From NCBI GenBank assembly GCA_008632985.1, contig QPGO01000024.1, positions 511,848 through 575,847 on the forward strand: a stretch of DNA of 64,000 nt, written 5' to 3'. A model generated the notes under the pieces. It ran no database searches and was not told the DNA's origin. It worked only from the letters and a program-made list of their open reading frames with translations. Positions within the stretch are counted from its first letter, which is position 1. Every line of letters starts with the position of its first letter. Shown one piece after another: positions 10,334 through 64,000 of the stretch. Source of the DNA: Psammoneis japonica (Eukaryota). Both the position numbers and the translations under genes were made by a program.

Positions 10334-13300
10334 TGTGAAAGACTCCCAAAGCACCAGGACTGTGACAACACGAGTGCTGGTAGATGAGAAAGTGAGAAGC
10401 AGATCTCAGAGAGATCTGTTCGTCTATCTAGATGGTCCGGTCATCATCCGTGTACAGTCTGTCCATCATGCAACATGCATGGGTGGGCTGACAACCTCCC
10501 CTGATCTGCAATGTCTCAACACAGAGAGCAGTGCAGATCAAAACAAAGAACAGGGATGATGCAAACAGACCGGACAACAAAACAAGGAGTCCAGGCTCAA
10601 CTCGCAATCATAAAGGAACCACACAGCATGGGGCAATGACATCTCCAAAAAGTCTCCAAAGGCAGCTGGGCGCATGTGCTGATCCAACGGAGTCTTCGAC
10701 AAAAACATCAAAGGTGGTTTCCAATGAATCTTGAAGATAAATCGAGTCTTGCACCAAAGAAATAAATTTGTCAATCAATGAGCAATCGATCACAGAAAGA
10801 CATTCTGGCGAGTCACACTGTCGCCAAATCTCATCGGAAGGGATGGGGCCAGAAAATGCAAACCCACCATGGTGGACAGTGCGGCAACAAAGAAGCAATG
10901 GCAATCCACCTGACAAAAAAATGCTTCCACCACCGGATGTGTCGCCCCTGAAGAACACATTGGACAAACAAAATGCATCGTGCAGTCGCTCAACGTCGGA
11001 AGAACAGTGACGCATCGCAGGTGAGCATCGCAAGGCCTTCAAATGATGGTCGTCAAGCAAGGTTTCTTGATTGAATGTGATGTTCTCAACAGCCTGACAT
11101 GCTTCCTCTGTGCCACAGGGTTCCCTCCCCTGATCTAAAAATGTGGGGTCATCGTCGGGGACAGTCGACAGGTCGGGACCACCAGGAAAAATGCCACTCG
11201 ACACCACAGTGGTCTTGACAGCGAAGGAAGAAGTCAACACACTGGAAGAGTTGGTGTGATTGTCAATCTTGCACAGTTCTTCTGCACAATGTTGCTCCCT
11301 CCTTTGACAAGAAAATGAAGGATCATCATCAGCGATGGTGGATGTGTCCGGAGTGCCATGAAAAGTGCAAACAGACGTGACAACGGTCCTGACAACGGAG
11401 GAAAGAGACGGCACAGCGGAAGGCAGCAAGACTCGGTGGCCCTCTTTCATAACAACCCCGCTTCCATTGGTGTCTTGTTCGGACAATGGAGGGAATGGTG
11501 GCGTCGCACATCCGAAATTGACGACGGCCGAGCCAAAAATCCGAGGACGAAGTAACCTGACAACCAACAGAGCTCTGGCTGCGTCCACGGGCATCATTCG
11601 CATCATGCGACGGTGCCACAGAGAGGCAGCAAACAGCTCATGGGTGACCTTGGCAACACAGTGTGATCCATCCAATGGATTAAAGTGAGCCCCATTGTGT
11701 GAAACAATGGGGTTGCCAGACACAAAAAACTTCGGGGTCTTGAGCAGGCAAGCGTGGAGGTCGGCGGGAAATGCCACCAATCCGGCAGACAATGGAAGTG
11801 AGCCGGTGCCAACAATTGCAGATGGCTCACTCGGAGGAACCACAACAGATGTGGGAGACTTGACATCCAGTGCAGTGGCATTCATGGGATCAATCCGAGT
11901 GCCCGTGAAGAGTGCACCTTCATCTTGAGTCACATCTGCATCATCTTGGCTAGAGGACTCGGTGGCGGCGTCCATCTTGGAATCTTCAAATGCATGATTA
12001 GTCGAAGACGAGGCCGGAGGTGAGGAAAAGAGCAAAGAGGCTTTCTCATGTCCGTCACGGTCACCGGAAGGTGAAAGGTCTGGATGGCGTTGATCCTTTG
12101 CATGAGGAGGTCCGTCCATGCCCTCGTCGAAGCGCACATTCGTGTCCATCTTGATCTGAGAGTTTTCAGGATCCTGCCACAGGACGCGCTTGTTGGCATC
12201 AGATGAACAACCAAGGAAAACACCCTTCTTGGGGACGGGGTGCAACTTGGAGCGACGGGAACCAGGTTCTCGAACCCAAACACGAGAACCAATTTCAATC
12301 TCCCCAGTGGCCTTGATGTCAGGAGTTGCACCCTGATCCACAGACACAACAGGCGCAGTGGATTCTCCAGAAGACAAACTGGTGGGCACAATGGATGATG
12401 TAGACCCCGATGAGGAGTCACATGACACATCAACAAGATCATGAATGCTTGTAGAGGGAAGAGGTGCATTCATCGTTGGAAGAGGCACAAGAGCTCCTTG
12501 TTTTGCATGTGGCACACAATTGGATGGAAGATGCATGTCAGCACCTCCAGGATGCATGGTTGCATTTGCATGGAGTGGCATGGTCGCTGATGAAGGACCA
12601 CGCCCGGTCATGACGGAATCGCAGACGCCAATCAATGAGGAATTCACACTCATCGCTGGATGAGGTAGATGTTCTTGTGGAGGTCGACACTGGGGTGCAT
12701 CATGCGCAGGAGCACCTCCATAACACTTTGCAGTTGTCGAATGTGGTTGTGTGTGACGTGACGCGACATCATGCGACGTCGTTGCGAAATGGTCCGTGCA
12801 CATCAACGAAGGATTCACACTCGATGACTGTGGAGCCATGTGAGCTTGTTTGGATGCACATGGGGAAAGAGAAAACTCTTTCCAATCTCTGTAATTCCAT
12901 GTCATGTCAGGATCAACACACACATGTTGGGTGGAGATGAGAACAAACAGGGATTGTTCATTGTTCAGGAGATTCGTCTTGATCAACTTTGACAAGATCG
13001 GAGTCGTCAAACGGACTGGACGAGGTCTTTGAGAGTCAACAAGTCGGAACGGGGCTTGATCCATAATTGTCTTGATCGATTGTACATCTGTGGGATCAGC
13101 TGTGTAGGGTGGAAACGCTTCGTGGATGAAGCAATCACGAAGTGTGTCCGCGAAATCTTTCTTGGGTTGCGCATGCTCTGGGTCATCAAAAAATGGGTCA
13201 AGATCAGTCATGGAGTCCGCATAAATTGCACTCAGGCAATTGTGCAGATGTGGCATCGCAAGCTCAAACAGACATTGGACAGCACCAAATCTTCAATGGT

Positions 13301-23461: not shown

Positions 23462-25367
23462 ATGTTTTGCAAGACAGCGTGGCACAGAATCTTTTTGCTG
23501 GTGACATTCTTGCTCGTATTCATCCTGATACTTCAGAAAGATTATGACAGAGCAGTCGCCCCTCTGACTTCGAGATATTTGCATTCTAACGAAGACAATA
23601 GCGATGGAAGCACGTCCCCGCTAGACGAACAACATTCGCTTTTCCCTTTAACGTCTCGTGACATATGGGGCTTCACTGCTGCAATATGTGGTTTGATGAT
23701 GGCAGCTGGAGGAGGAATCGGTGGAGGAGGGATCTTGGTTCCGATATATATTTTTGTATTGAAGTTTCCACCGAAGCACGCAATACCTTTGTCGAATGTG
23801 ACTGTGTTTGGCGGTGCTGTTGCCAATACTCTAGTAAATTGCCGAAAACGACATCCGCTCGCAGACAGGCCTTTGATTGATTGGGACCTGATCCTAATGA
23901 TGGAGCCCATGACAATAGCGGGCGCTCTTGCTGGAGCTAGTATCAATAAAGTGTTGCCACAGAGCGTGATTGTGATCATGTTAGCGTTGATGCTCTCAGC
24001 TACAGCTTACAAAACACTAGACAAGGCATGCAAACTGTATCGAACGGAAAGTGCTTCTCTCAGGTGGACTAAAGTTGAAACAGAACAGGAAGTGGATGGC
24101 GACGACGCCACGATTATTGAATTGACAAACCTGGACCAAGCTATAGCAATTGTAGAGCCTGAAGATTCTGATGGAGACAGAGTTGTCAGTTTCAACGCTG
24201 ATGAGAAGGAAGACGTGCCTGAACGATTTTTAGACGCAACCAAAAGGAGCTTAATACACACCCAGGATGATGGCTTGGATCACGCAGGGAAAACCGAAAA
24301 GTTGTCCCATTCACGCCCATCGAGTAATGGAGTTATCTCCATCTTGTTCGCAGTCGATGAGGACGATGTGAGTTCGGTTCCTTCGTGTCTGTCCTCAGAT
24401 GCAATCAGATCTCAACCGTACGACGAAGACGATTCCACGCCTGAAGCCCTAGACGGCGCCAAGTCATCGGCTCGATCGTCTTCCTATCTGGAACCTAGTA
24501 TAGAACGAGGCGATTCTCACTCAATTGGTACAAACCCTCTGCTTCAACACATTCTGGACGAGGAGCGGCATACCCCAATACGCAACGTCATCACTATCGT
24601 TGCATTATTCCTTGTGGTTCTCAACCTCAACATTATCAAAGGCGGTGGAGCATTTTCAAGTCCCGTTGGCATTGAGTGCGGATCACTCACATTCTGGCTC
24701 GCCGAGGCGTTCATGCTTACGTGCATTGTGATCGTCAGTGTTGCCGCGCGCACGATTTTGATTCACAGGACCAGGACAAAGTTGACTGTAAATTATCCTT
24801 ATGTCGAAGGCGACATTATTTGGACGTCAACCGCAACTATTATTTACCCAGCCATTTCAGGAGTCGCAGGCGTAGCCAGCGGCCTCTTTGGTATTGGTGG
24901 TGGGTGAGTGATCGTGTTTGACCAGACCCGCGTATCTTGTCTTTTTTAATCATTTCATGGAGTTGTCACCAACCTTTTTACCTTCCCTCTCCAGAATCGT
25001 CAAGGGACCACTTATGCTCGCCATGGGCGTCCATCCGGCCGTTTCTGCTGCCACATCCGCTTGCATGATTTTCTTTACAAGTTTCACAGCAACAACTTCT
25101 TATGTGGTGTACGGGCTGCTTGTAACGGACTATGCATTAGCGCTCTTGCTAACTGGTTTTCTTGCAACTTTAGTTGGACAAACCGTAATGTCGATGCTCC
25201 TTCGAGCATACAATCGGAATTCTTACATAGCTTTTTCCATTGGGATTGTGGTAACGTTGTCTGCTATATTATTGACAATAGAATCTCTTGTCAAAACAGA
25301 ACCAGATCACGATGATAGTGGTAGCAAGGAACGCTTTGGTGGGTTGTGCAGTAAGAGAATACCATAA
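23462..25367 (+). CDS. Sulfite exporter TauE/SafE family membrane protein (paralog 1)
   Basis: AAGGGIGGGGILVP, RHPLADRPLIDWDL, and GLFGIGGG joined to IVKGPLMLAMGVHP across intron 24904-24994. Confidence 0.9.
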
Positions 25368-25517: not shown

Positions 25518-27287
25518 TCAATCTTCTTTGCCACAAATACCGCCAGAGGAGTGGTGTGTAGACTCCGCCATTGAAACAAGAGACTGGATGGTCATGAGAA
25601 AGGCCGACAAGAGGACGACTCCTCCGATAGAGAAAGCAATGTAGGAATTGCGGTTTGATTTCTTCATGAGAATGCCCAGCCCAATCTGACCTACAAGAGT
25701 TGCCACGAATCCAATGCAGAAGCAAACCGAAGCGTAATCGGGAATCAACAATCCAAATACAACAAAGGACGTTGTGGCTGTAAAAGAAGTGAAGAGAATC
25801 ATGCAAGCTGACGACGCGGAAGACACAGCTGGATGGACGCCCATGGCGAGCATGAGAGGCCCCTTGACAATTCTGAAAGGGATGGCAAAAAAGGTTGGTG
25901 ACGACCCTGTGAGATAAAACAGTCAGGATACGCGAGTCAGGTCGAACAAGATCACTCACCCACCACCAACTCCAAACATGCCGGCAAAGAAGCCAGCAAG
26001 GCAACAAACGAGAGGGTATACAATGGTTGCACGACCATCCCATTTGATATCGCCTTCGACATATTTGTATCCGCAAGCCTGTTTTCGCTCAAACTTGCGC
26101 ACCAAGTAGGCACGCGCCATGAAACTGATGAGAACAATCCAGGCAAACATGACAAAGTTGGCAACCCAAAATGATTTGGAGCCGCATCGGATTCCCAAGG
26201 GAGACTTGAAGGCACCACCGCCCTTCATGATGTTGATAAAAAGCACAACCACAAACATGGTGACCAACATCATGATATTTCCGGGCGGAGCGTCCTTTTC
26301 CTCCTCCAGTATTTGCTCCAACTCTTCATTTGCAGCCTTGTCAATATCAACATTCTCTAGATCCCCTTCGTTTTCGTCACTGCTCGAAGAGGCGTCCAAT
26401 AGTTTCTCGGACGCTTCCTGGTCATCATCGTCTTGCTCCTTGTGAATGATGCGGGTGAGCTCGCTCTCCTTTTCTAGCATGCGTCGCGTCTCAATACGAT
26501 GCATCTTGACGGCCTTTGTAAGCGACTTGTACGCCGTGAAACTCAAGAGCGCCACCAGCATGACAACCAAGAGCGTTTCCGGCAAGAGTTTGTTGAGAAA
26601 CGCTCCAATGAGGGCACCTGAAAACATGTTGAAATGGTATGATTGAGTATGCAAGAAACTGGCGGTCATTTTGGACGAAAGCACCAAAGACGTACCTGCA
26701 ATGGTGAGAGGCTCCATAACGAGAATTAAGTCCCAGTCTACCAGCGGTCGATTTGCTAGAGGATGTCGCTTCCTTGTATTGAGAATGGTATTAGCAAAAG
26801 CACCACCTAGGACAGTAATGTTCGACAGAGGAATCGCATGCTTGGGTGAGAATCCCATAACGAGGATATAGATTGGCACGAGAATGCCTCCTCCTCCGAT
26901 ACCTCCTCCTGCTGCAATCATTAAGCCAACAATGGCAAAGCCAAAGCCGAAGAAGTCCGACGTGCTCAAAGGAAACAGAGGGTCATGGTCCAGATGGAGC
27001 ACTTTAGCCCTCTCCTCGTCGTGCTGCTGCAACGTTCTGCTGAGGAGGAAGTCTTCTTCAGCGAGAAAGGACGACGAAGCATCGTTTACTAACTCATGGC
27101 TTGATGACGGCAATAACTCGTTATACAGAAGAGCAGCGAGCGCAGCGAACACAATTAGAACCCACGGTAGCACCAACGACTTGAGTGACCCATGTTGCTT
27201 TCTCTCAGCCTGTTCCTCCTGCCGAGGGACAGCCGCATCTCTTGTCTCCGCCGTCATGGTTGTTGGCTCCAGTACAATGATACCCAC
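25518..27287 (-). CDS. Sulfite exporter TauE/SafE family membrane protein (paralog 2)
   Basis: Same motifs as paralog 1. Introns at ~26618-26695 and 25873-25959. Confidence 0.9.
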
Positions 27288-33259: not shown

Positions 33260-36200
33260 AACCTTGCTGCCTCTGCTCCTTCCCCTTTGCCCAACATTGA
33301 GCTCTTGCTTCAGGTCCTTCACCCTGTTGATCCTTCTGATGTGCCTGCTGTCTCCCTTGCTCCCGATGTCATTCGTGACATCATCCTCAAGATGCTGCAG
33401 CACCATGAGAAATGCACCCCTGCACTCCTCTCTTTGCCCTTGACTCTTTGACACTCTCTGAAACCAACAAGCACTCTCGCCCCCACCAGAGTCAGTGCAC
33501 TTCATCCAGTCATGCCTGCAAGCTCTGCTCCCGACCTCCTCCCCTTCTGCAGTCAAGTCCTTTCCTTTCTTCTCCAAAAGTGGCATCTGCATCCTTTGCC
33601 CCACTTTGCTGAGCTCCACTTTGCCAGCACTTTGTCTGATTTCCCACATCCTTCCCACTCGCTGACCCCTGTTGTGGACAATCCTTGTGCTCGACACACT
33701 GCACTTTCACAATCCCCACCTGCAACTCCTTTGATGAGAAGGCTCTCGGCATTCTTGCTGGTCCAACCCTGACCCTTTGTGGCTCTTCCCCCTTTCCTGT
33801 CTCCTCTCTCATTGCCACTCCTTGCTTGTTGGCAAGATCTCAAGCCCTGCTGCCAACCCCATCCTGTGATCTTTTTGTGGCTGCTCTGCCTTCCTCAACC
33901 TTGTTGTCATTTGGCCATCCCAGCATCCCAACAACCTTGCCCAGTGACATCACACTGTGTTTCTGCTCTGCAAGTCTTCTGCATCTCTGCATCCTCTGAT
34001 GCTGTCTTGAATGCCCTTCTTGTTTGTGTCGCCAACCCGCCCAATGCTCCGCCTGCTCTGTCTCCCATTCTGGGCACTTCCACCACTGTCATTCCCTCAA
34101 CTCTCTTCTTGGCAAAACAACATGGGTTGTGATCTTTGCTGATTGCCTCAGGCTTCCTTTTCTCAGCCTGGCGTCAATCGCCTCCTCTCCACTCTGATCC
34201 TCCACTCTCCAACTCCCATTTTCTCTGCCCACGATGCTCTCCTGATCAAGCACAAGCTCTTTTTCTTTCCATCCCCATTTGCCATTGCTCTTTCAGATGC
34301 CAACCTGCACAACTGTGCCAGTTTCCCTTCCAACCTCTTCAATCCCACTCCAGACTCTTCTCCCAATGATGGTGCAGCCTTTCCATCCTGTGCCTCTGCT
34401 GCTCTTCAGCTGCCTGTGCCCTCCCGTGACTCCTTCTCTTGCCATGCTCTTGAGCTGCTTGCCCAAGACTGGCCACTCCCCAAGACCCAAGACCCACTCC
34501 TGACATTGGCCCTCCTCCCTTGTTTTGTCCTTCTGCCTGCCTGCTGTTGATCTGCTGAGCCTCCTCCCTCCAAGTGCCCTCATCCTTCTCCCAGTGCATC
34601 CACTCTTCCCATTGAGGTCCCTCCTGATCAAGTGATGCAGTCTGAGTCTAACGACTCTGCTGCTCCTCAGCAGCCTCAATGTGATGTGGAGCTCCTGGAC
34701 ACTCTCAACATCTTTGTTGCTGCTCATTGTCCTGCTCATCTCTCCAACTGGATGCCCCTCTGTGATGCTGCTGTCCTGGCCCTTGCCCCCAACTTTGACT
34801 CTCTCTGCCACATCATTGCCTTGTGGAACCCATCGGCACCCACACCCCACTGACCTGCCCCTTTTGTTCCTGGTCTCCTTTGTCCACAGATTCATCTTCT
34901 CTCCCTGCTGCTGTGCAAAGTCACCTTTGCCAGGAGCATTCCCATTTCTCCCTTTTACAAGCACCTGCTGATTTTTTAATGCTGCTGGTTTGCATGTCTG
35001 CAGACATTGCAATCACAGCCAACACACCCACCTTTCTCCTGCACACCTCAACAATCACCTGCAAAATGAGCACTTTGCTCCCCACAGAACCCTCAATGTC
35101 AACATTGTTGCCTCTTCCCTTTGCAATGTTGGTGACTGGCACTCCTCTCTTTAATGGCTCTGCTCTCTTGTGCCTGCACCCCCTCCCTTCTGAGCCTCCT
35201 CCCACTGCAAACTCTCCTCTTCTGTCCACAAGGAACTCTGTGCCGCCCTTCATCATGTGCTTTGATGGGTCCTTGCCACTTGTCAGCCCTTTTCTGAACC
35301 TGCTCATCTCACACCTCAATGGCAATGCAATTCTGTGCCCTTTTGCAAGCTGCTTCTGCTCTTCAAGGCTCTCATCCTTGCCCCCGTTCCCCAGTGCTCC
35401 AAATTTGGCCCTGCCACAGCCTCTTGTCTGGCTCTCTTTTGCCGTGGATGCATCTGTCAGCTCTGCAAAGATGCCTGCTCCTTCCCATCATGCTCCTCTT
35501 CTTCTGGCTCCTCTCCCAACTTCTCTGCTTCCACCTGCTGTCACTGCACCAAAGTCTGTGCTGACAAGGATGACTTTCACTCAGCCTGTTCCAAACTCAC
35601 CTGCACACTCCCTGTTGCCACCGTTGCTCCTCAGCGCCTCCCTGAGATCCTCAAGCTCTGCCCTCCTTGCCTTCATCCCTCCCAACATGCCTGATGCTCC
35701 CTCTGCTTGCTCAGCCTCTTCTCTTAAAAATGAGCCCATTGAGCTTTCTGCCGATGCTCTTCTTTCTGCTCTTTTCAAGTGCAAACCCAGCACTGCTGCT
35801 GGCGTGTTTGGTGACTCCACCAATCTTCTCAAGTCCTGTGTTCTCTGCTCCACCAAAACTCCCACTGGCAACTCCCACTGCCCCTGTTTGCCTCCCTTTT
35901 GAGAACTCCTCCTCCTTCTCCTTCATGGCTCTGTCCCTCCTTCTGTCCTCCCCTTGCTTGCCTCCAATCACTTTGTTGCCACTCACAAGGACCCTGATGA
36001 CCTTGACAAGCTTTGCCCCGCAGGCATTGGCATGGCCCTTTGCCACACAACTGCTGGCTCTGTCATTGTGACTCTTTTTGTTTCTGACTTTACCAAATGC
36101 TTTTTCCCTGATGGTCAATTTGGAGTTGGTGTCAAAGGTGGTCTTGGCTGCATTGTTCACTCCACTCATGCCAAACATTGAATGACATCTTTCCACTGCT

Positions 36201-38340
36201 GACCCTGCCAAAGCTCTTCTGCTCCTCAATCTTGTCAACATGTTCAACAAAGTCTCCCGTGATGCTTGCTGTCACCTTCTTGCCTCCATCAAGGCCTTTC
36301 ATCTGCTTTTCCCATTCTTTGATCTCGTGTGTCAGTGCTCCAATGACTGCTGGTGCCATCACTCCAACTCTGCTTGGCCCCCTTTGTTCAAGAAGAAGGC
36401 TTCGCCCAAGGCTGCCCCCTTCTTGGCCTGTCTTTGCTGAACTGGTCCTTTCCCTTGTTCTCTGCCCACTTGACAAAGAACTCCTTGAGTGCATTCCTGG
36501 TTGCTCTTCCACCTCTGTTTGCTCTCACATCAATGATGCACACACCTTTCTCTCTCATTGTGCTCTTCCATGGTCCCTCAACGCTTCTCTGTGCTGGGTG
36601 CTCCCTGCTGTGGCATCACCCTTGGCCTCCACAAAACCAAGATCCTCACCTCCATCACTGGCATCAGTTCATCCCCACTCTCCCTCCCTCTCAAGCAGGC
36701 CCTCTTTTTGTGCCGCTCTCTCATGTCTCAACCCTGTGCATGACCCTTGTTCCTGCAACTCGGAGCTCACTTCAGGAGTCCACTTCCTTGGCCAGCCCCT
36801 CAACTCCCAAGACTTTGCCAACTGCTTCCTCTCTGCTGCCTCCTCTGTGCTCTCAGACAAAGTTGGCAAGCTCCTCACCGCCTTCACAACAAACAAACCC
36901 AAGCCCAACTCTTCAAGCACTGCTTCACTCCCTCCTCCACTCACCTGCTTGGCACCAGTTTCCACCACAACTTTGACCCTGGCGACCCTCCTGATCCCTT
37001 CCTTTGGACCTCTTCCTTTCAAGACTCTCTTCTCACTGCCACTCATTGACTCCTTTGCTGCGCTGTCTCCAGTGCTGATCCTCTCCCAAATCATTCCCTT
37101 GCCACTGCTTTCCTCCCTGCTTTGCTTGGCGGGCTTTGGCCTCCGAGACCCAGCAGCTGCTTCCATCCCTTTCTTCCTGGTTGCTCTCCTCTGCTCACTC
37201 CACTTTGCATTTCATGGAGTCCAACTGCCATCTGGCAACACCATTGCTCTCCCTCACTGTTTCAGGCTGTTTTGGTCCTCCTGGAACAACCCCCACTTGA
37301 CCTTGCACCTCCACAAGATCTTCTGCTCCTGTGCCCCCACTCTTGCCTCCACTTCCACCCTTGCTGCTTCTTCCCTGGCTGCTCTTGTCAAATCTGCTGC
37401 TCTTCCTGGCCTGGCACACCATCTCCATCACAAGCACCAGCAGCAAATTGCTGCCTCTGCCCTTGCCAATGCTCCCCCTGATGTGCAAGTCTCCCTGTCT
37501 TCCCTGCTGTCTCCACTCACCAGCCTTCCTCTGCGCTCCCTTTCCATCACTTCCAGAGCTCCCACCATGCCTCTGATGCTTGCACCATTGCCACCCAACA
37601 CAAAAACTCCACCTCCCTGTCCTTCCTCCCTCTCTTGTTGGCACACCCTGTGGTGGTCTCTCAACCCTCAACACTTGTGACAATCATGCCTTCTCTTGCC
37701 ATGGTGCTCCTCCTGGTTTGCCTGCTCTCTCTTCTCCCTTTTTTGCCAAGGCACACCATGTGAGTGCAAGATTGAAATTCCATGGACCCTCTGCTTCCTC
37801 TTCTGACAGATCCCTTGTTGTTGCTTTGCTCAAAATGACAGCATCTGCCTCCTCCCTGTTGCAATTGATCATTTTGGTGGTCTTGGTTTTTCATGGATTC
37901 CTCTTTGGCTCTTTGCTCTCCTCCACCTGCTCTCAGCCCAAGCCCCCTTGGTCCTCCTCTTCTGACCTGCAACACTCCAATGCCTTCTGCTCAGCCTTCC
38001 TCTGTGCCTTGGCATCTCTCTCTGCCCTTTTTCTTTTGTCTGCCAATTTTGCTTGGGACCAAATTTCCAGTGACTGCTTTGGCAGCACCCCTCATGCTGC
38101 CTCTCCCTCCAGTGGGCCATTCAAACACTTGGCCACAACCTCATTCATCACCCATCTCTGCATGCCCTCCACTTCACCTCCTTTCTTCCCTGCTCCTGCA
38201 TCCCCCACTCCCTCCGCCAAATGCCCTGCATCCTGCATTCTGTGCCCTTTCTACAGCCACTGTCACAACTGCAACTGCTTCTGTGCCTCCTTCTGCTGTC
38301 ACCATCCACTCTCCAAGGGCTCTTTAACTCTGCATTTAGT
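33260..38340 (+). mobile_element. Degenerate, near full-length CRE-clade-like non-LTR retrotransposon
   Basis: RT motifs AAGVFGDSTNLL (~35795), HKDPDDLDKLCP.GIG (~35985), QFGVGVKGG, LLNLVNMFNKVSRD, QEEGFAQGCPL (~36390), HIND for YIDD (~36526) and GVHFLGQPL. GFGLRDP follows. The C-terminal WDQISSDCFGSTPHAASP is homologous to the end of the element at 1-2359. Confidence 0.85.
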
Positions 38341-58565: not shown

Positions 58566-60308
58566 TTAGATTCGAATCTGATACGCCCCAGCCTTCGTAA
58601 TGTACCGGACCCATCTGTTCGTGTGGTATCCCGACTTGTCGTAGACCCTTAAGAAACGAACATGAACACCACTAGCCGTAAACATGGGAACTTGGAATTC
58701 AACGCTTATGGGTTGTCGGCTCCAGGCCTTGGGTCTCACTGTAGGTAACAAGTCCACATCTGCCTGAATGTGACATTCAGACTTGCCTGGAAACCTCTTC
58801 ACACGCCACACAATCGACTGCTGTTCAGGCTCATACTTGGCCCGTCCAAACGAATGTTTGATCTTTGCTTTCGCAGTATTCTTCGGAACGGGGATTTTGA
58901 TCACCACATGAGTCGCAAAGAGCTGATCCGCAAAGGTAGCCAGGACCTTTAAATTTATAGATACCCTGGAGTGCAACAAAGAAATGATTAAAAGCAGCTC
59001 TCAACATGGATTTCAATACCACAGGAAAGTTACTCACTTTGAGGATCCGTGCAGCTCTTGGACTGCGGGAATGATTCGGAAGGGAAGATTAATATTATCT
59101 GTGACCCTGTATCGCATGAGCTCAAACTCCCCGTCGGGTGGAATAAAGGTAATGGTTCTGTCCGCGTCGAACTTGCCAAGTCGAACACTACGATGAAACG
59201 TGCAATCATCAATCTCTACGCCCGGCTTGCGCTGCGACCCGGTTTCCTTCTCAATGACAAGCTTGTCATTCAATCCGAACTTGCATTCCGGCATACCTGT
59301 CAGTTTAGTATTCATATGCACCTGTCCAGTCACTTCGTTGCGCAGGACGCTGCCGGTGCTGGACAGCAACAGGTTGACGCTCTCCAACACGTCGATGTAT
59401 ACTTCGTTCTTCTTGTGACGGATTCCCTCCCGCCTCCAATCAATCGCCCCCGTGATTTGGCTAGTCAGCTGCGACGGCTCCGGCTCGTCCTGGGGTTTGA
59501 CGTTGCCGAGGTTAATGTAGAGACGTAGCACATCAACCGCGCAGTTCTGAGGGTATCCGAAATCCATCGTCTCGTCCATAAGTTCGTAAATAAGAGTCAT
59601 GTTATTGCGCATGGAGTTTTCGTCGAAATCTTCACCGAGATAAGCCTTAAGGATACGAATCTTCTGAAACAGATACTCAAAAACAAGGGCCGGGTTGACA
59701 TTGGATCTAGTCAAGGCAACAAAGTACATGTTCAAGTGACGAGTGTAGAGGAAGGAACAGTTTTCGATACGCTTTACCGGAGCCTGAGTGCCTGTTTCTT
59801 TAGCCGCAATAACCTGAGAAATGTCGTAGGCAGGAGGAAACAAGGGTCAGCATTCTTTCTGCATGGTCGTCAAACATGAAAAATTATTCGATGATTTTTT
59901 TCCTCATCAGTCGGTGATTTCGCGCGATCAATATATAAATATTCAAGCAACAGATTTAGTATATATGTCGGCCGTTAAGATAGATCCTAAAGCTTGAATA
60001 TGTCGAGATTAAATCATCCCAACATCGATGAATACAGCAATAAAAAATGCCAACACCTCCCAATGGTATTTTTCGGGAGTGGCCATGAAAGATCGTGAGC
60101 AATTTACTCACCTGCAAACGAAATGAATCCGCTGCAGCACGGCTAACATCATCTCTGTTGAAAATAGGAAAGCAGGGGAACCGTTAAGTCGAAGCCCTTC
60201 GTGTTAAAGGCGCACAACATCGAGACGTAGGCACGAACTCACTCACCGATACTGACGCGAGATCATAATGTCGCCCTTCTGGTTAAGAACCATTATCATC
60301 GAGATCAT
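58566..60308 (-). CDS. AP2M1: AP-2 complex subunit mu, multi-exon
   Basis: MISMIMVLNQKGDIMISRQYR, IYELMDETMDFGYPQ, TGAIDWRREG, GMPECKFGLND, FIPPDGEFELM, FQVPMFTASG and WVRYIT. Confidence 0.93.
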
Positions 60309-60619
60309 GGTCGCTCAGTATTCGTGATACAACAATACACCTAGTAGAGGAGAGACCAGAGCGAGAGGGAAACGAAAGAAGCGTGGTACGGATAAGTACG
60401 GAGGAGCTGTCACGGTGTTCTTGTTGATCTCGTGTCTCGTGGTTGTTGGGTTGTTGACATTTTTTTTATCGACGACCTCGCGGCCGGCAGCCGAGGGTGC
60501 TATCCACGGCAACAGTACAGGATGTACAAGAAGCTAACGTATGTAGAAGCACGTACCGAACATACTACGCCATAAAAGGTTGTATTCATCATCCGGGTTC
60601 CAACGCATTTCGTCACGAA

Positions 60620-61430
60620 AAGTTGTCAACAATGAGGTGCACACAGGCACACAGGCGCACCGAGCTGCTGGTCCTCCCCCGCCTTCTCTCTCTTCCTCTT
60701 CTTGTGCACTCTTGTTTTTGTTGTCTGTTTTTTTCTCCTCTTCTTGCTGCTCTTTTGCTCTTCCTGCTTCTTCTGTTGTGCACAGCACCTCTTCTTGAGC
60801 CTTTTCTCCAGTGTGCCAGCCTGGCCAGGCTTTTTGTTGCTTGCAGCGACGCCCAGCGCACCAGTTTCTCACTCTCATCTGCTGGCTGGCCAACCCCCCC
60901 CTCTGCTGGCAGCCAAGAAAAAAGGCATTGCACATTGCTGCACACTGCAATGTCTTTGAAAGAGGAGTGAGGTGGACCTCTTCCCTTGCTCTCCATGGCT
61001 TGGCACCTGCTGCACGAGCACGCGGTGTTGAACAACAAAGCATTCAGAACACAGATGCAGTGCTGTGTGCTCAATGAAGAACACACCAGTGTTCTGATTT
61101 TGCTTTGAGCCCCAGCAACAGGAGCAGCCACCAGCAGGGCCCTCTTGCTCTGTGCTGACTCCACAAAAGGCTTCTTCTCCTGCCTGGCTCTTGCAGTTTC
61201 TTGTGCCCCTCCATTTTGCGGCCCTTTTGCAAGAAGAGGAGAGCATCAAACAAGAAAAGAAAGCAAACAAAAAGTGGGGCAGGCAGAGAGAAGGGTGTGT
61301 GTGCTCTGTGTGGAGGCGGGGCTTGGCATCATGCCTGGCACCACCAGACCCAGAGGAAGAGCCATGACATGCTGGGTTGGTGGGCCAGATCTTGTGCTGA
61401 CAGAATGGGGCTGATCTGTGAATTTTTGTC
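60620..61430. mobile_element. TpA-free degenerate block, unclassified
   Basis: Composition only. Confidence 0.4.
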
Positions 61431-61630
61431 ATCTTTCAGGTGCTCCAGGTGATGAGGACAAACAATTCTCTGGGTTCAGTTGAAACGTGTGTGGTGACAA
61501 GTTCTGGCTCCAGCAGTGGGATCACCAGCTGGGCTTTTGTGTGTTTGTCGTTGTGTTCATGGCGGAGGTTGCTTCACCGCGCAAGAGACAAACGCACATC
61601 CAGCAGGGCCCTGCCTGCTTGCTTGCAATG

Positions 61631-62842
61631 GACCATGGAGATTCGGAAAAATTGGTTGCACTGTCCATCTGTCGCCATGCATCCCAGATGAAAATCAGAC
61701 GTGGTGCAAGCAGCCAGTGTGGTGAATCATCGGCCGCGATGCCAAAAAGAAGACACTGTTGCACCACATCATCAAAAGAACATGGAGACAAGAGATCACC
61801 ATCATTGAGAGCTGCATCAATGATCTAAAGCACTGGTTTTTAAACACACAATTGCATTGAAACCCCCAGCAATCCCTCCATGAGTGGTCACCGGTCATCT
61901 CAAGATCCCGCCGCCGACGGTTGGTGTGTTGCATGGGCTCCAACCACTGCCAGTGCTGGCAGCACACAGGCTCCCACTGCCACCAGCACCTGCAGCAAAA
62001 GGCTCCAACTGCCTCCAGTGCTGCTGGCACACAGGTGCCCACCGTCACCACTGCTGGCAGTTGTGCACAGGCTCCCACCACCACCACTGCCAGCAGCACA
62101 CAGGCTCCCACTGCCACCACTGCTGGCAGCAAAACACCTCCAATCACCACCACTGCCAGCAGCATGCAGGGGCACCATCAACACCAGACAAAAAGAATCC
62201 AACCACCTTGAATGCCAGCGGCACCCACCACCACCAGATGGAAAGGACAGTGGTGCACAGGCTCCAACCACCGCAAGTGCTGGCAGCTGTGCAGGGTGCA
62301 GCCTCCCACTGCCACCAGTGCCAGCATCACACAGGGGCACCCACCACTGCCAGATAGAAAGGACAGCAGTGCACAGGCTCCAACCGCTGCCAGTGCTGGT
62401 GGCCACACAGGATGCAGCCTCCCACTGCCACCAGTGCCAGCATCATGCGGGGGCACCAGCAAAAGGCTCCTGCCGCCGCCAGTGCTGCCACATTCAGCCC
62501 TGCCACAATGTGCAGTCCAGCCCATAAATTTATGTTGAAAACAACACCGTCAGAGACGCCACCAATGTGACAGATCTCTTTCAAACTTTCCAACACATTG
62601 TCACATCTAGAAGCATGCACTGTGGCATGGCCACGGGAACGCACTGAAGATGCCGCCACCGCATCATCATCGTGAAAGTGCCATTTGCGCTGGCCTCACG
62701 CAAATTTGAATGAGGCCTGATTGGCGCAACTGCCATTTCAGTGTAGCCCCACGCAATGTCATGCACGTAGAATCCCACACAAGTTTTGTGAACGCATGGA
62801 AGGACAGGCCAAGTGCAACCATTTTTTCAAATCTCCACAGTC
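61631..62842. mobile_element. Non-autonomous TIR element (1.2 kb) inserted in repeat copy A
   Basis: Left end GACCATGGAGATTCGGAAAAATTGGTTGCACT matches the reverse complement of the right end, GACTGTGGAGATTTGAAAAAATGGTTGCACT. The host repeat resumes after it. Confidence 0.8.
61935..62500. repeat. ~33-bp degenerate minisatellite (GGCTCCCACTGCCACCACTGCTGGCAGCACACA) inside the TIR element
   Basis: Visible repeated GGCTCC.AC..C.AC.A.TGC units. Confidence 0.85.
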
Positions 62843-63742
62843 CATGCTTGCTGCTGCTGGCCAGAGCCAGCCAGCAGTGAGCAGCTGGCCAGAGTGGGTG
62901 CATGAAGTGTGAGCAGCCAGCTGGAGTGGGTGCAGTGTGGGCCTCTGCTGGCACTCTCTGGAGTGGAAGTGACAGATCACTCTTCTTCATCTTTCAGGTG
63001 CTCCAGGTGATGAGGACAAACACTTGTCTGGGTTTGGTTGAAAAGTGTGTGATGACAAGTTCTGGCTCTCTTGCAGTGGGATCACCAGCTGTGCTTTTGT
63101 GTGTTTGTCATTGTGCTCACATGGTGGAGGCCACTTCACCATGCAAGGGACAAGTGCACAGCCAGCAGGGCCCTGCCTGCTTGCTTGCAATGCTTGCTGC
63201 TGCTGGCCAGAGCCAGCCAGCAGTGAGCAGCTGGCCAGAGTGGTGGGTGCATTGGCGTGAGCAGCCAGCTGGAGTGGGTGCAGTGTGGGCCTCTGCTGGC
63301 ACTCTCTAGAGTGGGAGTGACAGATCATTCTTCTTCATCTTTCAGGTGCTCCAGGTGATGAGGACAAACAATTCTCTGGGTTTAGTTAAAACGTGTGTGG
63401 TGACAAGTTTTGGCTCCAGCAGTGGGATCAACAGTTGGGCTTTTGTGTGTTTGTCATTGTGTTCATGGCGGAGGCCGCTTCACAGAGCAAGAGACAGACG
63501 TACAGCCAGCAGGGCCTAGCCTGCTTACTTACGATACTTGCTGCTGCTAGCCAGCCAGAGCTAGCTAGCTAGCTAGCCAGCAGTGAGCAGCAAGCTAGAG
63601 TGGGTGCACTGCGGGCCTCTACGGGCACTCTCTAGAGTGATAGATCGTTCTTCTTCATTCGGTCTACTAAGTCAACTACATGTTCCATAGACCTGGGAAA
63701 AAATAGACTGAGCAAATGAAAGAGTCTTAGAGTTGTCTCATT

Positions 63743-64000
63743 TTAGTCTACATGACGACGTTTCGCAGTGCCGCCACGCTGTAGTCGTCTTTCTTCTGCC
63801 TTCCGTTTACGCCTTTTCCGTTCACTTTGGTGCTTCTTCATTTTGCGAGCTGTGGCCACTTGTGGATCCTGAACGGCTTCCACTGCCAATTTCTGCTTGC
63901 GCGCTTCCTTCTTCTCTCGAGCTCGGACCTTCACAGATGCGTACGCCTCTAGGAATCCCTCCGTACCACAGTGCTCTTCCAGCACATGGAGTACGTTTTT
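63743..64000 (-). CDS. 3' end of small-subunit processome component UTP20-like gene (partial)
   Basis: G.E.FLEAYASV...R..RKQKLAVEAVQDP..A..RKMKKH..KRRKRK resembles UTP20 C-termini. The gene runs off the window. Confidence 0.65.
   Translation of the reverse strand, partial: KNVLHVLEEHCGTEGFLEAYASVKVRAREKKEARKQKLAVEAVQDPQVATARKMKKHQSERKRRKRKAEERRLQRGGTAKRRHVD

Follow-up and report, generated by a model that had tools for sequence, protein, structure and literature searches.

Tandem repeat copies across the edge of a TA-poor tract point to loss of TpA in the diatom Psammoneis japonica

Repeat-induced point mutation (RIP) of Neurospora and other ascomycetes inactivates mobile DNA in place and can extend to adjacent unique DNA. 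In the chlorarachniophyte Bigelowiella natans, hypermutation restricted to TpA has been described for integrated giant-virus and virophage DNA (Mettrop et al., bioRxiv 10.64898/2026.01.13.699255), and 230 of 231 mutations in two viral regions of mutation-accumulation lines were A>G or T>C changes, each of them at TpA. RIP is mentioned, and the methylation of transposons in diatoms is treated, in PMC9998398. In the present study, we analysed a stretch of 64,000 nucleotides from Psammoneis japonica, hereafter the window (GenBank assembly GCA_008632985.1, contig QPGO01000024.1, positions 511,848 to 575,847), in which a tandem array with a unit of 348 bp crosses the edge of a tract nearly free of TA, and we compared the copies of the unit on the two sides of this edge.

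Judged from its sequence, the locus carries a signature and a regional confinement of the B. natans kind, and B. natans is the closest known case. Both cases share changes of almost only TpA to TpG or CpA, confinement on the scale of kilobases and, possibly, mobile or foreign DNA as a target, and clusters poor in TpA and rich in CpA and TpG occur elsewhere in the B. natans genome. At the diatom locus, the substitutions are almost only A:T-to-G:C changes at TpA, and the affected region is delimited, with normal DNA on both sides. The two cases differ in lineage, a diatom (stramenopile) here and a chlorarachniophyte (rhizarian) there, and in degree, the diatom tracts being near saturation, whereas the giant-virus region of B. 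natans still has a TpA content of 3.3%. Strong parallel loss of CpG, coverage of single-copy spacer and tandem array, and a flank rule by which TA between a pyrimidine and a purine (YTAR) is spared are additional in the diatom, and the words 'CpG', 'diatom', 'tandem', 'context' and 'flanking' are absent from the available text of the preprint. The kind of evidence also differs, new mutations having been observed in B. natans, while the diatom locus offers one difference between assembly and reads. The direction proposed here is backed by the B. natans lines, in which mutation accumulation gave the same direction directly. In our literature search, from which subscription journals were largely absent, the signature was found described once, in this 2026 chlorarachniophyte preprint, and no description of TpA erasure in diatoms was found. 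The same signature near saturation in a diatom would mean that the mechanism is old and widespread in the stramenopile–alveolate–rhizarian (SAR) lineages or that it arose more than once.

RIP resembles the diatom process in making dense, context-specific transitions in place on mobile DNA and in leaving a strong dinucleotide signature. However, the chemistry is opposite, RIP making TpA from CpA and the diatom process destroying TpA, and TG and CA outcomes are interleaved here, in contrast to the strand-coordinated stretches of RIP. An A:T-to-G:C mutator directed at silent or mobile DNA would be the mirror image of fungal RIP.

The TA-poor tract and the array at its edge

The tract (Table 1; 2667 bp) holds 8 TA, 49 CG, 287 TG and 329 CA. 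The last TA on its left lies at 60583 and the first on its right at 63307, and TA-free runs of 1243, 514 and 539 bp occur in this region, in DNA of about 53% G+C. Normal DNA adjoins on both sides, with 33 TA and 40 CG in the 584 bp to the left of the tract and 14 TA in the 342 bp to the right of the array (63659–64000). The ratio of observed to expected TA is 0.04 at 61001–62000 and 0.14 at 62001–63000, compared with 0.5–0.85 in gene-bearing kilobases. The left flank of the array (60584–61430) has no TA and 15 CG. At the left edge (60584–60640), CG remains at normal density for about 100 bases past the last TA, and the boundaries of TA and CG are therefore not exactly coincident.

Blocks nearly without TA and low in CG separate the genes of the window, the longest TA-free run being 2161 bp. 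With tract limits that we drew after seeing the data, the tracts (28,487 bp) contain 2.9 TA, 15.3 CG and 212 TG+CA per kb, and the DNA outside them (35,513 bp) contains 43.3, 56.5 and 144 per kb, respectively. The excess of TG+CA in the tracts (+67.9 per kb) covers most of the deficit of TA+CG (−81.6 per kb), and the frequencies of AA, TT and AC/GT barely differ between tract and non-tract DNA of the window. RIP was rejected on its expected rise in TpA, given these values and the loss of TA at the sites that could be polarised.

Tandem Repeats Finder reported a period of 348 with 2.1 copies and 87% matches over 62847–63569. A BLAST search of 63195–63700 against the window returned copy B (83.2% over 495) and copy A (61429–61624, 196 bases, 91.8%) and nothing else. 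We divided the unit into block I, its first ~145 bases, and block II, the remainder, and we denote the blocks of each copy by number (B1, B2 and so on). The right edge of the tract falls within the array, and copy D ends 85 bp past the stop codon of the neighbouring gene, so that the spared copies may lie within the 3′ untranslated region of that gene. Copy number was judged from the depth of read-derived contigs of one sample, possibly the source of the assembly, at 85% likeness. Depth was that of single-copy DNA (~55–70) over 61300–61572 and from 63029 onward, copy A being at ~56–71, and an unbranched read-derived contig of 3046 bases reaches 61464 from the left. By this measure there are no further genomic copies of the 348-bp unit, and the alignment of all genomic copies that the preliminary description had proposed is already exhausted by those of the window.

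Table 1. Features at and around the array, in window positions
Feature	Position	Strand	Remarks
AP-2 mu subunit gene exon	59034..59843	-	Pfam Adap_comp_sub 8.5e-49; 5′ side toward left tract edge
TA-erased, CG-poor tract	60640..63306 (~2.7 kb)	.	fills most of the spacer between two genes
Copy A	61431..61630	+	block II only; TA 0, CG 6; 179/199 to C2, 177/199 to B2
Multi-copy element with terminal inverted repeats (transposon)	61631..62843	.	inserted in the array between A and B
Copy B	62847..63194	+	block I 62847–62990, block II 62991–63194; most mutated copy; TA 0, CG 0
Copy C	63195..63537	+	block I 63195–63338 (TA 1), block II 63339–63537 (TA 7, CG 5)
Graded right tract edge	63307..63500	.	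three surviving TA: 63307, 63383, 63387, all YTAR
Window versus read difference	63535..63536	+	TA in window (RTAY, fastest class), TG in 5129-base read-derived contig
Copy D	63538..63658	+	partial, block I only (first third of unit); TA 9, CG 3
Protein-coding gene, 3′ end	63743..64000	-	85 codons and stop (63743–45); runs off window; the array is its 3′ flank

A column-by-column check located all the strings quoted in the preliminary description. TA stands at 63383–84 and 63387–88 in C, CA at 61477–78 in A and TG at 63035–36 in B; the 20-mer of C at 63521–63540 pairs with a TG/CA version at 63177–63196 in B; and the pairs GCTAGCTAG (D) versus GCCAGCCAG (B, C) and GATAGATCGTT (D, 63639–49) versus GACAGATCATT (C, 63319–29) are both present. 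At an overall divergence of 10–15%, all seven TA of C2 and all nine of D are altered in the distal copies, and TG or CA replaces TA at six of the seven sites of C2, in both A2 and B2, and at eight of the nine sites of D, in B1. Where the partner of a TA is TG or CA, the ratio of sites with TA in the proximal copy to sites with TA in the distal copy was 6:0 for C2 versus A2, 6:0 for C2 versus B2, 8:0 for D versus B1 (three of the eight lying in a GCTA microsatellite of uncertain alignment), 7:0 for D versus C1 and 1:0 for C1 versus B1, though the zero reverse counts partly follow from A and B having no TA. The TG and CA outcomes alternate site by site.

CG changed in parallel. B1 and B2 have no CG and C1 has one, and CG faces TG or CA at a ratio of 4:0 in C2 versus B2, 5:0 in A2 versus B2 and 2:0 in D versus B1 and C1, while C2 versus A2 gave two such sites and one in the reverse sense. 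Copy C had been said to keep more CG, which holds in comparison with B but not with A (block II CG: A 6, B 0, C 5). The changes agree with the decay of 5-methylcytosine at CpG in that CG becomes TG or CA, as seen from the absence of CG in the 348 bp of B and from 13 rows of the inserted element in which the majority of its family has CG. However, such decay explains the CG half only; the loss of TA is more complete than that of CG, and the two are locally uncoupled, copy A having no TA yet six CG.

Changes of TA to TG or CA are weak-to-strong, and the array has signs of conversion, both of which would fit GC-biased gene conversion or a general AT-to-GC bias in a recombining tandem array. We nevertheless regard such a bias as a very improbable cause. 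The loss is specific to TpA, all seven TA of C2 being altered in A and B versus about 6–8 of about 86 other A/T positions (counted by eye), and the AA, TT and AC/GT frequencies of the tracts are hardly shifted; in addition, strong-to-weak losses of CpG occurred in the same DNA, and the non-repeated flanks are affected equally.

Polarity of the substitutions

With three copies, a site divided two to one is a private difference, and its direction hangs on the position of the root. The array alone polarises two TA sites and three CG dinucleotides. At 63383, the three copies show three states (CA in A, TG in B, TA in C); every two-step history therefore includes at least one loss of TA, and the history made of losses only needs no gain. 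At 62959/63307/63633, B has TG, whereas C and D have TA. B1 and C1 are identical at 140/146 positions (95.9%) and D is more distant from both (104/119 and 105/118), so that D is the outgroup and the site records a change of TA to TG in B. Among CG sites, 63476–77 also has three states (TG, CA, CG), and 61578–81 reads CGCG in A, CATG in B and AGAG in C, of which only CGCG yields both others by single changes. A further 13–15 sites have TA in the gene-proximal copy and TG or CA in the distal copy, and none has the reverse. The paralogous copies across the edge thus serve as an internal control and support the direction of change without a second genome.

The inserted element gave a second comparison, in which the family state was taken as the depth-weighted majority of the other genomic copies of the element. 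The comparison used 35 element rows with depth in run X1, of 40 among 94 rows, and four rows with depth only in X2 were dropped. The majority differs from the window in 30 rows, and in 24 of these the window has TG or CA where the majority has TA (11) or CG (13); of the remainder, one has CG in the window versus TG in the majority and five are other changes. Across the array and the element comparison, no site requiring a gain of TA was found. It is likely that TA is the earlier state, lost by a process that changes TpA to TpG or CpA in situ. The proposal of an ancestral TA, lost on either strand as TG or CA, is accordingly supported, though the array gives it less support than the preliminary description assumed. 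The label gene-proximal used there for copy C is apt as a description; what matters is the side of the tract edge on which a copy lies.

Several points weigh against this reading. A degenerate pattern of 34 bases from the unit had no matches in metagenome contigs, and a search of such contigs with the last 85 residues encoded by the neighbouring gene hit 591 pattern stretches, none of which was confirmed as a relative; most sites of the array are unpolarised because there is neither an outgroup locus nor a further copy of the unit. The family-majority comparison draws on contigs of one sample at 85% likeness and on 40 of 94 rows, and the window-wide counts depend on limits drawn with the data in view. 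A2 and B2 have the same outcome at five of six sites and B1 and C1 at six of six clean sites, and A and B end in 25 identical bases. The concordant outcomes of the distal copies therefore indicate much shared history, by descent or conversion, and fewer independent events than sites. Finally, copy C is itself not purely ancestral; its private changes comprise two C>T changes (63410, 63435), a C>A change at 63431 and AGAG in place of CGCG at 63484–87.

The opposite direction would have TA gained in C and D of a TA-free array, by RIP-like C-to-T changes at CpA/TpG or, once these copies lay outside the domain, by ordinary drift from GC to AT. Midpoint rooting of block II, which places the root on the long branch of B (A2–C2 179/199, B2–C2 170/199), formally turns the C-private TA into such gains, and the C>T changes at 63410 and 63435 are private to C and lie outside CpA. 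We consider this history improbable, however. C and D hold CG as well, and in those very contexts a gain of CG needs the opposite changes (T>C or A>G); if D is the outgroup, 62959/63307/63633 would need two parallel gains versus one loss; the transposon within the tract lost TA relative to the majority of its family; and TA-free DNA a kilobase long is no primary state where the DNA outside has 43 TA per kb.

Targeting by position and the graded edge

The element between copies A and B has inverted arms of about 35 bases (61628–61662 and 62812–62845) and is flanked by a 3-bp duplication, ATG (61628–61630 and 62844–62846). Deletion of 61631–62846 restores a 49/49 match to the intact junction of B and C, and A and B were therefore once adjoining units of one array, later split by this multi-copy element. 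Its interior consists of tandem repeats of 33, 69 and 116 bp, and the depth of read-derived contigs is 530–2490 over 61573–62846 compared with ~55–70 in the flanks. The element is non-coding and 1.2 kb long, and contig depth indicates about 10–30 copies. Between its two arms there are differences of CA versus TG and CG versus TG, the same kinds of change as in the tract. The 3-bp duplication does not decide the superfamily of this element, which lacks coding capacity.

All 8 TA of the tract lie in the element (1215 bp; 31 CG), and the remainder of the tract (1452 bp) has none. By our arithmetic, the chance of all eight falling in the element at random is (1215/2666)^8, or about 0.002. The tract is probably older than the insertion, because these TA are all in the element and because both the duplicated target triplet and the junction recovered by the deletion already show the erased state; on this order, the domain was apparently in place when the transposon landed. 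Single-copy spacer and array make up more than half of the tract, and erasure has gone further in them than in the multi-copy element. The process is aimed by position and not by sequence likeness, because single-copy flanking DNA is erased while the repeat copies C2 and D beyond the edge are spared. RIP, in contrast, hits duplicated sequence, and targeting of duplicated DNA alone was rejected on the same two observations.

The positional pattern also bears on whether the signature arose in transposon RNA that underwent adenosine-to-inosine (A-to-I) editing, by ADAR-type hyperediting, and was then reverse-transcribed and integrated. ADAR favours a 3′ G, and TA followed by G is among the contexts spared here. 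The erased DNA comprises single-copy spacer, tandem array and an inverted-repeat (DNA-type) element, and copies of one array differ according to position; RNA editing before integration is therefore excluded as the sole cause, and we hold a history of edited retro-copies to be extremely improbable. The resemblance to ADAR lies in A>G changes on either strand and in the 5′ preference for U/T, the 5′ U preference being given in the discussion of the B. natans preprint (bioRxiv 10.64898/2026.01.13.699255), and a Copia-like remnant is present in another tract of the window.

Loss of TA depended on the flanking bases. The TA survivors in tracts versus TA outside numbered 3 versus 500 for purine-TA-pyrimidine (RTAY), 30 versus 744 for mixed flanks and 50 versus 293 for YTAR. 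TTAA made up 25 of the 83 tract survivors versus 73 of the 1537 TA outside, and ATAT, ATAC and GTAT had no survivors in tracts versus 366 occurrences outside. A strand-independent model with two rates, which we fitted to RTAY and YTAR on the assumption that tracts began at the TA density outside, predicts a survival of 3.8% for the mixed class, and about 5% was observed. A strand-specific T-A-pyrimidine motif, which would give TG at YTAY and CA at RTAR, agreed by eye with four of four mixed-class sites in the array and with one of four in the element and was not upheld.

All three TA closest to the edge belong to the slow class, YTAR, for which we calculated a chance of 0.19^3, or about 0.007, and 63501 is the first site at which a TA of the fast class persists, which places the functional edge somewhere in the interval 63307–63500. 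Alternatively, it is possible, although we lean against it, that the direction is right but that the gradient is a mosaic of erased pieces that were duplicated or converted (B1 onto C1, the end of A onto the end of B) and not a spreading front. To the same degree, the array might then record few independent events and say little about how the domain edge is set. The higher identity of B1 to C1 (140/146) than of B2 to C2 (170/199), the shared outcome of B1 and C1 at all six clean D-TA sites and the erased state of the identical last 25 bases of A and B fit such a mosaic. However, the TA at 63307 is kept in C1 and is TG in B1, indicating that erasure went on after B1 and C1 had split, and the YTAR context shared by all three edge TA is more in keeping with a kinetic edge than with pure mosaic copying. 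The mosaic and the kinetic edge are compatible, and both may hold.

Comparison of the window with read-derived contigs found a single difference in about 1,180 unique bases, at 63536. No differences occur over copy A, the B2 contig and the left flank, and one occurs over 648 bases of C and D. A change in progress is a possible explanation for 63536, and heterozygosity, drift in culture and consensus error are also candidates. That the whole signature is an artefact of sequencing or assembly, such as a modified base miscalled in certain domains, is conceivable insofar as all reads come from one sample, possibly the source of the assembly. This is hardly credible, though, given the agreement of independent read contigs, the two kinds of outcome (TG and CA) interleaved within a few bases and the site-by-site differences of other copies of the element.

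We propose that the array, which is non-coding and lies immediately downstream of a diatom gene, spans the boundary of a chromosomal domain in which TpA would be turned into TpG or CpA by mutation in situ (A:T to G:C, on either strand) and in which CpG would decay to TpG or CpA in parallel. The copies within the domain, namely A, B and the beginning of C, would have lost all their TA, and the part of C nearest the gene, together with D, would preserve an earlier state with TA and CG. In the order of events that we envisage, the array formed, its distal part was erased and erased pieces were duplicated or converted, the transposon inserted at a junction that was probably already erased, and the transposon was itself erased, so far to about seven-eighths. 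The changes may have come about as repeated single-site events over many generations in silent chromatin. The substitution pattern, its confinement, the flank rule and the polarity at a few array sites and in the transposon are observations, and the agent is inferred. Our best guess at the agent is an enzyme-driven deamination of adenine, or a modification of thymine that mispairs with G, at TpA in silenced chromatin, combined with deamination of 5-methylcytosine at CpG.

A more far-reaching version, which we put forward tentatively and regard as rather unlikely, is that the TpA mutator of the diatom continues to act and takes its direction from a chromatin domain and not from repeats, with the edge advancing or holding against the transcribed 3′ end of the gene, RTAY lost first and YTAR last, and the transposon landing in a domain already being erased, so that the process would be attracted by silent chromatin and not by the element. 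If such a chromatin-directed mutator is active, tandem arrays at tract edges would be natural reporters of the rate and reach of the process.

Genes and other TA-poor blocks of the window

The kilobases with ordinary TA carry ordinary genes, namely TauE (twice), NOC3p, cwf21, DHHC, NUDIX, AP-2 mu, PP2C and PfkB. The AP-2 mu exon has 85–95% identity to proteins of Seminavis, Odontella, Eucampia, Nitzschia and Leptocylindrus, which are named as diatom, and about 70% to those of Ectocarpus and Nannochloropsis. On these named protein matches, the host of the window is a diatom and not Bigelowiella. The search of 59800–64000 against Rfam gave no match at gathering thresholds.

The two TauE-family genes form an inverted duplicate pair (24880–25108 and 25759–25983; 78.7% over 230 bases) in TA-normal DNA, and duplication alone therefore does not attract the mutator. 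Self-comparison of the window revealed no other paralogous pair straddling a tract edge.

An open frame on the minus strand in a TA-poor block (10608–13256) encodes a retroviral-polymerase SH3-like domain (SH3_retrovirus) and represents a Copia-type remnant. Its 883 residues include 5 Tyr, with His and Cys raised, compared with 9–38 Tyr in host frames (n = 3, 444–1128 residues). The low Tyr content, as expected if TAY codons became CAY or TGY, is suggestive only, and the frame may be a largely accidental one in TA-free DNA, SH3_retrovirus being the sole domain detected. Loss of TA removes two of the three stop codons, so that long false reading frames appear in TA-free DNA, and TA erasure also hides transposons from similarity searches.

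The TA-free blocks at 1–2000 and 34000–38000 have a GC skew of about −0.4 to −0.47, with an AT skew of −0.32 at 34–38 kb, and this skew could reflect the elements' own composition or a strand-biased mutation. The block at the locus described here is strand-balanced, unlike these two.

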